From Patescibacteria group bacterium (GTDB taxonomy: Bacteria > Patescibacteriota > Minisyncoccia > UBA6257 > 02-FULL-45-10c), in assembly GCA_028865335.1 (NCBI GenBank), contig JAGWKK010000003.1, forward strand, positions 1-37,321: a stretch of DNA of 37,321 nucleotides. The letters are read 5' to 3'. The notes under the pieces were generated by a model. It was given only the letters and a program-made list of their open reading frames with translations. It had not been told where the DNA came from and did no database searches. Each line of letters starts with the position of its first letter. Position 1 is the stretch's first letter. Of the stretch, positions 14,030 through 32,277 are shown one piece after another. The translations under genes were made by a program, and so were the position numbers.

Positions 14030-14178
14030 TATGTCGGGTAGTAGAACTGCGATGAGTATATAACCCCTCTTCGCCGACGACTATCTTGCATAGGCCGTTT
14101 ACAATTCATTCACGTTCCGACTATAATTAAGACGTGTTATATACTGCGAAGAGTATCGCAGTTTCACTACCCGATATG
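14030..14178 (+). mobile_element. TATG-flanked structured element at the rpmB start codon
   Basis: TATG|TCGGGTAGTAGAACTGCGAT...ATCGCAGTTTCACTACCCGA|TATG, 141 bp between the repeats; the second ATG starts rpmB. Confidence 0.7.
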
Positions 14179-17397: not shown

Positions 17398-17417
17398 CCT
17401 GCCTGCCGGCAGGCAGG
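17398..17417. repeat. 20-bp perfect palindrome CCTGCCTGCCGGCAGGCAGG
   Basis: Second copy (19/20) lies inside mnmA at 22009-22028. Confidence 0.8.
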
Positions 17418-21982: not shown

Positions 21983-23269
21983 TTACACGATCACGCCGCC
22001 GCCAAGCACCTGCCTGCCGGCAGGCGGGTTTGTCCGTTCGGCCGAATAGAATACCGCCGACTGGCCTACCGCCACGAACTTCTGCGGTTTATCAAATACC
22101 AGACGATATGCTACAGATGATCCATCGCTTCGCTTGTTCAATCGCCGCGCTTGTTCCTTTTTATGCTGTCCATCATTTTGAAAAGTGATTAGCGTCGCCT
22201 TGAAAAGCGGTTGCCGATATCTGACCCTCGCAAGCACTGGTATTCGCCTATTCGCGCGAATTAGAGAAGGTAACGGACTGATGAAATTGACATCGGTCAG
22301 CGCGACTTCGGAACGCGCCAATGCCGGATCGCCATCCTCAGCGACCAGCAGCGCATTCTCCTTCACGTCCTTTTCCGCGATATAGTACGGTTTCGGATTT
22401 CCGCCGATACCGAGTCCGCCGCGCTGGCCGATCGTATAGAACGAAACCCCCTGATGTTCCCCGACGATTTTCCCCGCCGTATTCACCACGATTCCCTTCT
22501 TCTCCGGAATATACGCGCTCAGAAAATCCTTCAGCGACACCTGGCCGAGGAAACAGATCCCCTGCGAGTCCTTCTTCTCCGCGTTCGGCAAGCCGAATTT
22601 CTTCGCGAGTTTCCGCACTTCCGGCTTCGGATAGTCGCCGATCGGAAACAGGCAATGCTTCAACTGCTTCTGCGTCAGCGTCCAGAGGAAATAGGATTGG
22701 TCCTTATTCGTATCGCGCGCGATACGAAGTTCAAATGTTGTATCACTTCGCGTGTTCGATCGTTTCGGGCGTTCTAATTGTTCTATCGCTCTGCTTGTTC
22801 CAGTTGTTCTACCGCTCGCCCTCGCTTGCTTGCCTTTAACATCTGGAACGGCTAGAACATCTCCATCATTTAGAACGCTCTCCGTCCGCCGAAGGCGGAC
22901 ATAATGTCCCGTCGCCACATAATCGGCTCCGAGCGCAAGCGCCTTTTCCAGGAACAGCCCGAATTTGATCTCCTTATTGCACATCACGTCCGGATTCGGC
23001 GTGATGCCGTTCCGGTACCCCTCCACCATATACGCGACCACCCGGTCCTTGTATTCCTGTTCCATATCAAAAACGTAGAACGGCACTCCGAGTGTTTCCG
23101 CTGCCCGGCGCGCATCCTCCGCATCCTGCTCGGCACAGCCGTCGACGTTGTAACATTTCAGATGAACGCCGACCACATCAAAACCCCGCTGCTTCAGCAG
23201 CGCCGCCGCGACCGACGAATCAACTCCGCCGGACATGCCCACAAATACTTTTCCGCGTCCTTTTTTCAT
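21983..23269 (-). CDS. mnmA: tRNA-specific 2-thiouridylase with several in-frame insertions
   Basis: MSGGVDSS, TPNPDVMCN, ATGHY, KDQSYFL, KKDSQGICF, YTIGQR, RVRYRQ, GQSAVFY, LGGGVI. Confidence 0.96.
   Translation of the reverse strand: MKKGRGKVFVGMSGGVDSSVAAALLKQRGFDVVGVHLKCYNVDGCAEQDAEDARRAAETLGVPFYVFDMEQEYKDRVVAYMVEGYRNGITPNPDVMCNKEIKFGLFLEKALALGADYVATGHYVRLRRTESVLNDGDVLAVPDVKGKQARASGRTTGTSRAIEQLERPKRSNTRSDTTFELRIARDTNKDQSYFLWTLTQKQLKHCLFPIGDYPKPEVRKLAKKFGLPNAEKKDSQGICFLGQVSLKDFLSAYIPEKKGIVVNTAGKIVGEHQGVSFYTIGQRGGLGIGGNPKPYYIAEKDVKENALLVAEDGDPALARSEVALTDVNFISPLPSLIRANRRIPVLARVRYRQPLFKATLITFQNDGQHKKEQARRLNKRSDGSSVAYRLVFDKPQKFVAVGQSAVFYSAERTNPPAGRQVLGGGVIV
22009..22028. repeat. In-frame copy of the CCTGCCTGCCGGCAGGC palindrome in mnmA
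   Basis: Encodes PPAGRQV; matches 17398-17417. Confidence 0.75.
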
Positions 23270-26344: not shown

Positions 26345-27634
26345 CTATACCAACGGAATATTGGACGGCGGTTCGCCCTTGCGCGTTTCCAAGCGGCGCA
26401 GCAGCGGAGACTCCACCGTGACCAACGGGAAGTGGAAGATCGTCGCGAGTTCTTCGGTATTCAAAATTGACGCGCTCGGCGGGAACCAGCGCAGCCGGTA
26501 CCGGTCGTAGATCGCGCGCTTGCGGACATGGATCTTCTGCTTGCGGAACCAGCTCTTCGTCGTCAGCTTTTTGGACGTCACCAGCGTCATCGTATCCCCC
26601 AGCGGACGGAAGCTGTTCATGTCCTGCGTGTTGAACTGCTTGAACGCTCCGTTGACCGCGGCGACGTTTGCCGGCGTAAAACTTTCCGCATGATCGATAT
26701 AGACGAACCGGACCGCGGACTCGAAGCCCAGCTTGGAAATCTTGCGTTCCACCGCTTCCAGAATATTCTTTTCGCCCGGCGAAAGATTGACCATCTTGAG
26801 GCCCTCTTCCTTTTTCGGAGCACCGCCCCATGCCGGATATTGGCGCGGCGCGGAAACCAGGTTCAGCACAAACTCCCGCAGGCCGCTGACCAGCGCCTCC
26901 AGTCCTTTTTTCTCGGCGACCTTCTTGCGCTGCATGATCTTGTCGCGGAGCGCTTCGCCCTCGGCCTTCCACTTATCGGAAACCGGCTTGATCAGGTACT
27001 GCAGCCAGATCGCCTCGCCTTCTTTCAGGCGGGACATGACTTCGGTGATCGCCGCGATCGGATCCAGGCGCTGTTCATCCACGTTCGCCTCGAAGAATTC
27101 ATAGGTCTTGATCGGATACGCGTTCGGCTTCGCCAGCACGAAATCGCTCCCCCAGAGATCATAGGATTGGTTCGGCAGGACTTCGGGCATCAGATCCGTA
27201 TAATCCTCGGCTTCGGAGATTTCGGCGTCCGGATATTCGGAATAGATCGCCGATTCGATGAGATTGCGGTGCGGCTTCGCGCAGCGGACGAAAAAATGCA
27301 CTCCGCCGCCGTAACCGATCAGCTCGAAGGTGAACCACAGCAGATCCGATCCCTTGAAATACTTGTCTTCAAAGCCGGGGTCGGACGCGTACACCGCGTG
27401 CAGCGTGGAAAAGATATTCTCCATCGCTTTCGGCGTCTTCAGGATGTTCCGCGGGATCTTGATTTCGAGCAGAACCCACGGAATGCTCAGCTTCCACAGG
27501 CGGTTTTTCCCCCATACCCAAAAATCCCTCCAAATGAAAAAGAGGGCTGCGGGAACGACGATCCACCAGCTCACACTGAACACCCGCGCAATCGATTGCG
27601 CAATGCCCAACGCGACGCTATTCCAGTCCACCAT
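26345..27634 (-). CDS. Membrane-anchored partner of the adjacent ATPase
   Basis: N-terminal TM, LLEIKIPR...PKAME, SEYPDAEI, YPIKTY, LNTEELATIFHFP; recalled as a recurrent CPR family. Confidence 0.8.
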   Translation of the reverse strand: MVDWNSVALGIAQSIARVFSVSWWIVVPAALFFIWRDFWVWGKNRLWKLSIPWVLLEIKIPRNILKTPKAMENIFSTLHAVYASDPGFEDKYFKGSDLLWFTFELIGYGGGVHFFVRCAKPHRNLIESAIYSEYPDAEISEAEDYTDLMPEVLPNQSYDLWGSDFVLAKPNAYPIKTYEFFEANVDEQRLDPIAAITEVMSRLKEGEAIWLQYLIKPVSDKWKAEGEALRDKIMQRKKVAEKKGLEALVSGLREFVLNLVSAPRQYPAWGGAPKKEEGLKMVNLSPGEKNILEAVERKISKLGFESAVRFVYIDHAESFTPANVAAVNGAFKQFNTQDMNSFRPLGDTMTLVTSKKLTTKSWFRKQKIHVRKRAIYDRYRLRWFPPSASILNTEELATIFHFPLVTVESPLLRRLETRKGEPPSNIPLV

Positions 27635-27772
27635 ATCAGGTAGTAGAAATTCGAGCGCTACGCGTTTCGAATTTGGCGATTAATAGTAGTCATCATGTTC
27701 AGGACATATGTCAGCCGAAGCAACGTTAATGAATACCGGCGGAAACCACTCGAATTTTCACTACCTGACATA
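27632..27772 (-). mobile_element. TATG-flanked structured element at the start codon of 26345..27634
   Basis: Minus strand TATG|TCAGGTAGTGAAAATTCGAGTG...CGCTCGAATTTCTACTACCTGA|TATG, 133 bp. Confidence 0.65.
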
Positions 27773-31488: not shown

Positions 31489-32127
31489 TTATTCAACCGT
31501 CACGCTCCGGATAACCGCATCCACCGTCGGATGGTCGTTCTGGTTGCGCGGCAAGTTCACGATCTGATCGACGACATCCATGCCGCTCAGCACGTGTCCG
31601 AAGATCGTATAATTGTGCGGCAGCGCCTGATCAGCCTGCATGATGAAGAACTGGCTGCCGTTCGTGTTCGGACCGGCGTTCGCCATCGCGAGCGTCCCGC
31701 GGGTATAGCCCTGCTGATACGACGGCGTCTGCGGATTCAGTTCATCGGCGAATGTATAGCCGGGCCCGCCCATGCCGTCATTGGACCAATCGTTGTCTTT
31801 GCTGTTCGGATCGCCGCCCTGGATCATGAATCCCGGAATCACCCGATGGAACTTGGTACCGTCATAGAATCCTTTCTGCGTCAGCGTCAGGAAATTCTGC
31901 ACCGTCTTCGGCGCATCCTTCGGATAGAGTTCCAACTGAATATTACCGAAGCTGGTCTTCATCAGTATCACCGGATCGCCCGCAATCTGCGGCGTCGCGG
32001 TCGCCACAACTTCCTGCGCCGCCACCGTCGGTGTCGCAGCCGCATGACGCGTCAGATAATACGCTCCGGCGAAAAAGCCGACCAATACCACCGCCACCAC
32101 CAGCCCCCGAATAATGTCTGTAGTCAT
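31489..32127 (-). CDS. Membrane-anchored cyclophilin-type peptidyl-prolyl isomerase
   Basis: APKTVQNF, FHRVIPGFMIQGGDP, LAMANAGPNTNGSQFFI; N-terminal TM; start placed at MTTDII. Confidence 0.92.
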   Translation of the reverse strand: MTTDIIRGLVVAVVLVGFFAGAYYLTRHAAATPTVAAQEVVATATPQIAGDPVILMKTSFGNIQLELYPKDAPKTVQNFLTLTQKGFYDGTKFHRVIPGFMIQGGDPNSKDNDWSNDGMGGPGYTFADELNPQTPSYQQGYTRGTLAMANAGPNTNGSQFFIMQADQALPHNYTIFGHVLSGMDVVDQIVNLPRNQNDHPTVDAVIRSVTVE

Positions 32128-32277
32128 ACCACGTAGTGAATCTGCGGGGTGTATCCGCAGCATTTAATGTTTATATTTAAATTTCTTAAACTTCTTCGTT
32201 ATAGCCAAACTTGGCATCGCCTGATAGTTTCACTGCGGATACATTAAATGCCAACCGCAGATCTACTACATGGCATA
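32125..32277 (-). mobile_element. TATG-flanked structured element at the cyclophilin start codon
   Basis: Minus strand TATG|CCATGTAGTAGATCTGCGG...CCGCAGATTCACTACGTGG|TATG, 145 bp; ends alignable with the rpmB element. Confidence 0.7.

Follow-up and report, generated by a model that had tools for sequence, protein, structure and literature searches.

The L28-like gene and the element at its start

The stretch of DNA analyzed here, called the window, comprises the 37,321 nucleotides at positions 1 to 37,321 of contig JAGWKK010000003.1 from a Patescibacteria group bacterium (contig C8 of genome G000, an assembly of 859,786 bases in 61 contigs which is 97.7% complete; genomes, contigs and loci carry our own G, C and L numbers). 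Directly ahead of a gene for a 62-aa L28-like protein, whose match to L28 in a profile search is weak (TIGR00009, E 0.006, below the cut-off), lies a short element with terminal inverted repeats, and inside it are two pairs of complementary boxes, X with X' and Y with Y', in the crossed order X,Y...X',Y'. A second full copy precedes a gene for a cyclophilin (Pro_isomerase, E 7.6e-48). The coordinates that a first-pass annotation had given for X/X' and Y/Y' were exact in both copies on re-reading of the window, the crossed order was found in both with linkers of 0-2 nt, and the six differences between the copies (three in X, three in Y) are each accompanied by the complementary change at the partner position. 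On the plus strand the second copy contains GTATCCGC (32151-32158), GCATTTAAT (32160-32168), GCGGATAC (32235-32242) and ATTAAATGC (32243-32251); on the minus strand X GCATTTAAT pairs with ATTAAATGC and Y GTATCCGC pairs with GCGGATAC. A third element had been described as only a weak echo of the first two and this is what we found, its best helices being of 10 bp crossed and 11 bp nested. This copy is flipped relative to a 429-aa minus-strand gene starting at 27634. Without this copy the divergent start codons of that gene and of a plus-strand frame from 27774 would be only 2 nt apart (CAT-AT-ATG), and the promoters would lie inside each other's gene. The positions of the features are collected in Table 1.

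Table 1. Features of the element ahead of the L28-like gene, and the two further copies in the window.
Feature	Position	Strand	Remark
Left target duplication TATG	14030..14033	+	holds the ATG that was originally the start codon or transcription start; now split from the gene
Left terminal inverted repeat TCGGGTAGTAGAACTGCGAT	14034..14053	+	GTAGTAGA-type arm
Box X GTATATAAC	14056..14064	+	complementary to 14136-14144
Box Y CTCTTCGC	14067..14074	+	complementary to 14146-14153
Variable A+T-rich interior	14075..14135	+	barely alignable among copies
Box X' GTTATATAC	14136..14144	+	
Box Y' GCGAAGAG	14146..14153	+	
Right terminal inverted repeat ATCGCAGTTTCACTACCCGA	14155..14174	+	reverse complement is a GTAGTGAA-type arm
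Right TATG duplication	14175..14178	+	ATG 14176-14178 opens the 62-aa L28-like gene
Second full copy, TATG, arms, X,Y...X',Y' and TATG	32125..32277	-	on the start codon of the cyclophilin gene
Third copy, divergent subfamily	27632..27772	+	duplication CATA on the + strand; without clear crossed boxes

The boxes are the inside of one copy of a non-autonomous mobile element which resembles the MITEs (miniature inverted-repeat transposable elements). Genome comparison revealed the empty site ...cTATG-aag at the L28-like gene in G004, G002 and G003, and the empty L28 site was also present in the contig of a related strain from the same metagenomes. At the cyclophilin gene of G004 the upstream sequence is the same as in G000 and is followed by a single TATG. 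A set of 44 distinct elements was drawn from the window and from fetched loci of several genomes, leaving out those with arms off the simple pattern (including the C36 copy of G000 and several loci of G001 and G008). The flanking 4-mers match on both sides in 37 of these 44 elements (31 TATG and six others, namely TTTG, TCAA, GATG, CATG and TTTT twice), and by eye two more have a repeat which is 5 nt long or shifted by one base (L052 CAATG, L023 TTATA). Since the flanking words co-vary at both sides, the repeat has been made from the target and is a true duplication. Metagenome contigs contained no within-strain joint between presence and absence, only the empty site of the related strain and another family copy. 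The first-pass annotation had contrasted the conserved boxes with the needs of a passive MITE; this contrast is not supported, as the element is itself MITE-like in its inverted repeats, site-varying duplication, empty sites and lineage-specific positions.

Insertion has been both lineage-specific and recurrent. Of the gene-start sites occupied in relatives, 22 were compared with G000. A counterpart exists there for 18, and just one of the 18 is occupied, at the L28-like gene, where G001 has an element of another subfamily facing the other way. The gene with its G000 counterpart at C41:3469 is occupied in both G001 and G051. Occupation of these two genes more than once indicates that the same starts are hit repeatedly. 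Compensatory evolution in place at orthologous insertions was considered and rejected, because the presumed orthologous sites map to genes which are empty in G000. At one locus of G051 (L066, C34) two different elements stand in tandem, at 209-347 and 360-481, with one TATG common to both. Some variants are only 60-85 nt long (L023 of G057, L032 of G039 and many of the G015 and G022 matches). They contain hardly anything but the arms plus a small loop or a local hairpin, they are found away from gene starts, and TTATA and TCAA are examples of their flanks.

The elements span 121-171 bp and are non-coding; counted with the duplications, copies measure 137-171 nt. Each copy reads TATG, an arm of 19-23 nt (CCNGGTAGTAGAnnTGCGR...), X and Y, an A+T-rich interior of about 60 nt, X' and Y', an arm ending in ...YCGCAnnTTCACTACCNGG, and TATG. 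The terminal inverted repeats of 19-23 bp form an outer stem, and pairing among 14 copies reaches 90.7% in one of its halves (helix 1) and 96.2% in the other (helix 2). In every pair listed for five further genomes, one arm is of the GTAGTAGA type and the other, on the opposite strand, of the GTAGTGAA type, which results in a fixed A.C and a fixed G.T in mid-stem; RNAalifold offers an alternative, in which the spot holds two Watson-Crick pairs with a single bulge to either side of them, the bulges being on opposite strands.

G000 contains 14 loci, as determined with nhmmer and with a covariance model (R1) which was made from the 14 copies and whose structure comprises the outer stem and Y; there were 28 matches since both strands were counted. 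R1 matched in 25 of 61 genomes of the order, G000 included, with a patchy distribution even within the genus (three of four other genomes). Most of the stretches listed by a 14-mer scan of contigs were chance matches in unrelated taxa, while 4 of 10 loci tested held real copies, which came from metagenome-assembled genomes labelled Patescibacteria group, Candidatus Portnoybacteria, Saccharibacteria and Doudnabacteria. Carriage by phage was rejected, the pattern with ATG flanks occurring in 0 viral contigs and a looser pattern in 75, none of which matched R1. Full-text literature searches found no description of such an element. The family is a non-autonomous mobile element of Patescibacteria-type small genomes.

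Crossed boxes and their pairing

The pairing was scored first among kin, in an alignment of all 14 copies of G000 (A1). Outer stem, X and Y together were paired in 90.1% of the cells, compared with 25.6-40.6% when the partners were slid by 1-3 columns. The covariation score, with the crossed helices included, was 0.288 against 0.125 in shuffles, and two-sided changes were observed at five of nine X pairs and three of eight Y pairs. None of 500 shuffles reached 0.288, a count which overstates the support since the copies are related, and which is not a probability.

An independent test was made on those 42 of the 44 elements whose arms are separated by 56 nt or more. In the 28-nt stretches adjoining the two arms, the best pair of ungapped helices, each 5 bp or longer, was sought in either crossed or nested order. 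Crossed helices totalling at least 14 bp were obtained in 29 of the 42 elements, as opposed to 2.3% with shuffled 3' windows and 12% when 5' and 3' windows from different elements were mismatched. Nested helices of this size were obtained in seven elements (shuffled 3' windows 2.4%, mismatched partners 6%), and the mean helix total was 14.2 bp crossed and 9.6 bp nested. The box sequences themselves are unrelated between subfamilies, as in TTACGCAA with CACTATT, CAATTTAT with CTTTAGCT, AACATAAATAA with TGTTGC, GATTAACC with CAAGTTAT, and ATTAAATTC with TTTTTTTTG. What is conserved in the crossed boxes is their arrangement and not their sequence. In both the G000 alignment and the 42-element set the pairing thus exceeds that of shuffles, and the persistence of the crossed order across subfamilies with unrelated boxes bears out the earlier claim that selection keeps X and Y complementary; active maintenance of this pairing is supported.

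Two other regularities near the boxes were examined and set aside. A copy of the terminus following Y (CTATCYGGCA) gave 8-9 of 13 matches where the 95th percentile of shuffles was 9, and is a subfamily motif only. A four-way CTGCGR/YCGCAG repeat shared by arm, Y, Y' and arm in G000 copies was by eye absent from other subfamilies and is not general.

Integration at start codons, and a second repeat

Most of the elements lie at the beginning of genes. Thirty-three of the 44 abut the ATG of a frame in which no stop occurs for 50 codons or more, or as far as the locus reaches; one more is flanked by frames of this kind on both sides and 10 have none. The element inserts exactly on the ATG, so that the start codon is duplicated and the gene keeps an ATG. 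In G000 the genes behind elements encode, besides the cyclophilin and the L28-like protein, Ddl (E 1.1e-25), FtsZ (E 2.4e-20), HisRS (E 2e-13) and a class-V aminotransferase. A decayed copy with its left arm intact and its right arm unrecognisable by eye stands before ftsZ in G048 (L097, contig C3), and ftsZ has apparently been hit in two genomes, G000 and G048.

The sequence that precedes the left TATG is rich in A+T; position -1 is T at 29 of the 33 sites, and by eye a TANNNT word ends 5-9 nt before the ATG in 23 of the 33. Genome-wide, in crude frame-based counts which include spurious frames, TANNNT peaks 6 nt before the first ATGs of long frames (6.5%, compared with 0.5% at internal ATGs) and Shine-Dalgarno-like words are barely enriched (3.3% compared with 1.5%). 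We infer that the target genes, with their -10 box a few bases ahead of the ATG, start in the leaderless manner, and that insertion takes place near position +4 of the transcript. Relative to the gene, 21 elements are in forward and 12 in flipped orientation. The frame from the first ATG ends within the element in all 33 cases, and stops at codons 9-16 in 22 of them as against 10 of 33 in a control frame. A conserved upstream peptide was rejected as a candidate, the stop at codon 11 being common to 14 related forward copies and variable in position elsewhere. An outward promoter within the element was likewise rejected; an ATAAT-like box is present about 10 nt before X' in copies of the G000 type and is not general, and TANNNT has no preferred distance from X' or Y across the 29 elements with crossed boxes.

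A second repeat was encountered in the same genomes, a perfect and nearly invariant 20-nt palindrome, CCTGCCTGCCGGCAGGCAGG, which is present in the window at 17398-17417 and at 22009-22028 (one mismatch). There are 34 copies in G000 with at most two mismatches, and 37 of the 61 genomes of the order contain it with at most one mismatch; a full-text literature search for the word found no paper. It occurs within arms of the element at the fixed A.C/G.T spot, as GTAGTA, palindrome, GATC or as TTTTC, palindrome, ACTAC, in cases from three families of the order (G000:C36:3635-3654; L098 in G048; L101, L102 and L103 in G051), and the irregularity in mid-stem seems to be a preferred landing place for this second tiny element. 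Several copies lie in tRNA-like contexts, yet simple insertion into live tRNA genes found no support, the ARAGORN count being 40 both before and after removal in silico. In G000 the palindrome also belongs to a further repeat, present about six times (...ctcgaaccacatctgggcacc, palindrome, ttcggtttccc...), in which two palindromes often stand 25 nt apart, at C28:25/70, C33:13808/13853, C38:3259/3304, C34:18388, C61:14773 and C42:8480.

Possible roles of the folded strand and likeness to known systems

The pairs formed by X and Y in the 29 crossed-box elements comprise 477 Watson-Crick pairs, five G.T and three A.C. Read on the sense strand of the gene there are six G.T to one A.C in X and Y, and five G.T to nine A.C in the arms when the two fixed positions are disregarded. 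The near-absence of wobble together with the lack of strand bias is unlike a structure selected only in an mRNA. As single-stranded DNA the two strands of the first element fold with -26.5 and -27.9 kcal/mol (z -5.45 and -5.35). The sense-strand RNA fold consists of the outer stem and Y:Y' and has energies of -56.5 and -57.4 kcal/mol (z -4.8 and -5.9); X lies in a bulge of 12 nt. The stem begins right behind the 5' ATG and ends one base ahead of the real ATG. RNAalifold on the 14 copies picks the outer stem with X:X' instead. When either box was forced together with the stem, the energies differed by 1.2 ± 4.5 kcal/mol on average over the 29 elements and were within 3 kcal/mol in 11 of them; the folding tools used predict no pseudoknots. 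Two mutually exclusive folds, one of the forms proposed in the first-pass annotation, are plausible from these nearly equal energies, and we found nothing which favours RNA over single-stranded DNA as the folding strand.

At the gathering score Rfam reported only two tRNAs in the window, and at E values up to 10 nothing on the first element and two chance-level plant miRNA matches on the second. A tRNA-like fold was rejected, as ARAGORN found only the two known tRNAs in the window. Two elements that lie at T runs and off gene starts (L055 and L056) have 18 bp of crossed pairing each. The target duplications are nearly intact, so that copies look young, and the interiors of different copies are very different; the compensating changes probably arose in source lineages, where selection acts on spread and tolerance. 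A function as RNA is not favoured by the evidence at hand.

The reading which we place first, and to which we give about even chances, is that of a mobile element with crossed boxes kept complementary since it must fold as a single strand to propagate. The almost purely Watson-Crick pairing, the equality of the strands and the occurrence of both orientations point to a folded single strand needed by the element itself, rather than a riboswitch in an mRNA. This strand could be either strand of the DNA or a transcript of either orientation, and the fold would be read by its shape rather than its sequence, in the manner of integron attC sites. The likeliest fold would be a bistable hairpin in which X:X' and Y:Y' are alternative continuations of the terminal stem; the first would leave Y' as a bulge on the 3' side and the second X as a bulge on the 5' side, of about 10 nt in each case. 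Linkers of 0-2 nt seem to rule out, on steric grounds, a coaxial pseudoknot of the classical type with 9 + 8 bp, while a compact pseudoknot with two side-by-side helices on top of the stem may form, both by reasoning without computation.

Several points weigh against this reading. The steric case against a coaxial pseudoknot is itself reasoning only, with no computation behind it. Thirteen of the 42 full-length elements are without clear crossed boxes, hence the feature is not indispensable to every subfamily; by eye, a local hairpin rich in G+C stands instead beside the GTAGTGAA-type arm in several of the 13 (L053, L070, L071, L023 and the C14 copy). From the target duplication one would expect that both strands are cut with a stagger, as by DDE-type transposases, and such enzymes are not known to need a folded single strand. 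No autonomous partner was found: in five copy-rich genomes there were no arm pairs more than 300 nt apart, unpaired arms being those split by the 20-nt palindrome or variant arms; PF13701 was over the cut-off in none of the 61 genomes, and PF01609 (DDE_Tnp_1) and PF00665 (rve) were absent in a search of G000, which gave one Phage_integrase match. The genomes searched for a partner are metagenome assemblies, from which repeats may be missing. Lastly, elements in the 5' leaders of essential genes may be under selection through the mRNA of the host.

This last consideration leads to an alternative which we regard as possible and tentatively hold behind the first, namely that the crossed helices act in the mRNA leader. 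The transcript would start at the old ATG and carry the element, and its fold would keep the downstream gene expressed. Processing at the stem could restore a 5' end that is short or leaderless, the fold could stabilise the 5' end, or it could be coupled with the short reading frame upstream. The position of elements between the promoter and the ATG of the presumably indispensable FtsZ, HisRS, Ddl and L28-like genes means that expression must survive, the stem spans the distance from right after the 5' ATG to one base short of the real one, the first-ATG frame is enriched for stops at codons 9-16 (22 of 33 against 10 of 33), and a fold with Watson-Crick pairs only forms either way round, which fits the 21:12 split of orientations. 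However, there are hardly any G.U pairs and no bias to the sense strand, L055 and L056 retain their boxes away from gene starts, and the young look of copies with intact duplications places the compensating changes in source lineages and not in place; neither an outward -10 box at a fixed distance nor an Rfam family match was found. A further reading, which we hold to be doubtful, is that the folded transcript, with its crossed helices and the fixed mismatch in mid-stem, is removed or bypassed, so that essential genes such as ftsZ and hisS are still translated from a 5'-terminal ATG. If true, the parasite would be harmless by design to leaderless genes by duplicating the ATG at the start of both transcription and translation, and in function it would parallel self-removing introns, here for leaderless mRNAs and in either orientation.

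It is quite unlikely that X and Y are double-stranded transposase sites, in an order differing between the ends (A-X-Y on the left, A-Y-X on the right), and that their complementarity merely reflects one protein binding both ends, like the asymmetric subterminal repeats of piggyBac, Tn7 and Mu. The ends are indeed fixed and asymmetric (GTAGTAGA versus GTAGTGAA) in all pairs listed for five genomes, and the CC...GG termini, together with the duplication of a favoured word of 4 bp, are reminiscent of piggyBac and IS1380. But within G000 alone X reads GTATATAAC, GCATTTAAT or GAATTTAAC and Y reads CTCTTCGC, GTATCCGC or TTATTCGC, each word fitting only its own partner, so that one protein could not read them through their sequence; nor was such a transposase found (PF13701 in the 61 genomes, PF01609 and PF00665 in G000).

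Movement as a REPIN-like doublet by a REP-associated tyrosine transposase (RAYT), an HUH enzyme acting on single strands for which TATG would be the cleavage-site word, we judge very unlikely. G000 does contain a RAYT-like gene (L012, G000:C14:1-1684, gene at 2-409 on the minus strand, cut by the contig end; PF01797 E 1.2e-9, NF047646 E 8.8e-7, below the cut-off), GTAG opens both arms as in REPs (repetitive extragenic palindromes), and the five genomes richest in R1 matches (G000, G001, G008, G019 and G048) all have a PF01797 match, a post hoc observation. Over the 61 genomes, however, 10 have both, 15 the element only, 11 PF01797 only and 25 neither, which is no association; 13 loci around PF01797 genes contained no arm motif save two chance-like matches in L078, and flanks co-vary at the non-TATG sites, unlike a cleavage-site word that travels with the element. 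The G000 gene has a different hairpin of its own, TAAGGAC-7nt-GTCCTTA, found just upstream and again in the reading frame, with five copies in G000. The RAYT link was rejected on the lack of co-occurrence over the 61 genomes and of arms beside PF01797 genes. Disfavoured most of all, and scarcely credible, is that the crossed pattern is a functionless accident of a founder inherited by descent: the 11 core G000 copies are related and shuffle tests on kin are inflated, but the interior has diverged past alignment with X and Y still paired, and unrelated boxes elsewhere keep the crossed order (29 of 42, against about 2% of shuffles).

The targeting of start codons of leaderless and essential genes and the conservation of crossed helices by shape only are both unusual. 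If confirmed, there would be a family of mobile elements widespread in Patescibacteria-type genomes, with precise integration at the start codons of leaderless genes and repeated independent hits, which would imply recognition of the promoter or start as well as a way for essential genes to keep working. Interleaved complementarity kept by compensation across deep divergence would imply reading by shape. Either property would open a question to direct test: in what way genomes so small put up with repeats and mobilise them when they have no resident transposases, and how the translation of leaderless mRNAs deals with a structured insert of 150 nt.

Among known systems, the closest in general build are the Correia elements of Neisseria and the ERIC sequences of enterobacteria, which like the element described here are gene-free, about 100-170 bp in length, have long terminal inverted repeats and a short target duplication, and are present in many dispersed copies at transcribed gene-adjacent sites in either orientation. 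The element differs from these in its duplication of 4 bp, mostly TATG and not TA, in landing exactly on the start codon of leaderless-type genes, in its interleaved subterminal complementarity which is kept in arrangement and not in sequence, and in its fixed mid-stem A.C/G.T pair; no cognate insertion sequence was found for it. Of the characters of a MITE it has the short non-coding body, the terminal inverted repeats and the target duplication with empty sites, the cognate autonomous element not being found. The piggyBac and IS1380 elements share CC...GG termini (CCNG...CNGG here), a 4-bp duplication of a preferred word and asymmetric subterminal repeats, but PF13701 was not over the cut-off in any of the 61 genomes and the subterminal boxes vary between copies of our element. 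REPIN/RAYT systems and palindromes derived from IS200/IS605 are similar in the GTAG at the arm starts, hairpin ends and a length of about 100-150 bp. Unlike REPINs, the element duplicates its target and is neither associated with RAYT-like genes across the 61 genomes nor found beside them, and whereas IS200/IS605 (HUH) elements use a fixed word without duplication, its flanks co-vary at GATG, CATG, TTTG, TCAA and TTTT sites.

Integron attC sites also vary in sequence within a genome while a single-strand fold is kept by compensating changes, and there as here fixed irregularities of the stem could mark the strand or site. However, attC sites pair in nested order (R''-L''...L'-R'), and the tyrosine integrase that inserts cassettes makes no target duplication, whereas the boxes of the element are crossed (29 of 42, nested seven of 42) and a duplication is made, so that nested pairing of the attC kind was not what we found. 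H-type pseudoknots and bistable RNA switches share the order S1, S2, S1', S2' and two near-isoenergetic folds; in the element the linkers of 0-2 nt are, by reasoning, too short for coaxial stems of 9 and 8 bp, there is hardly any G.U and no Rfam family matches. Programmed translational bypass, as in T4 gene 60 and the mitochondrial byps, uses matched take-off and landing codons around a structured gap. The duplication made by the element puts an ATG on both sides of the stem, and a bypass here would require ribosomes to skip 140-150 nt.

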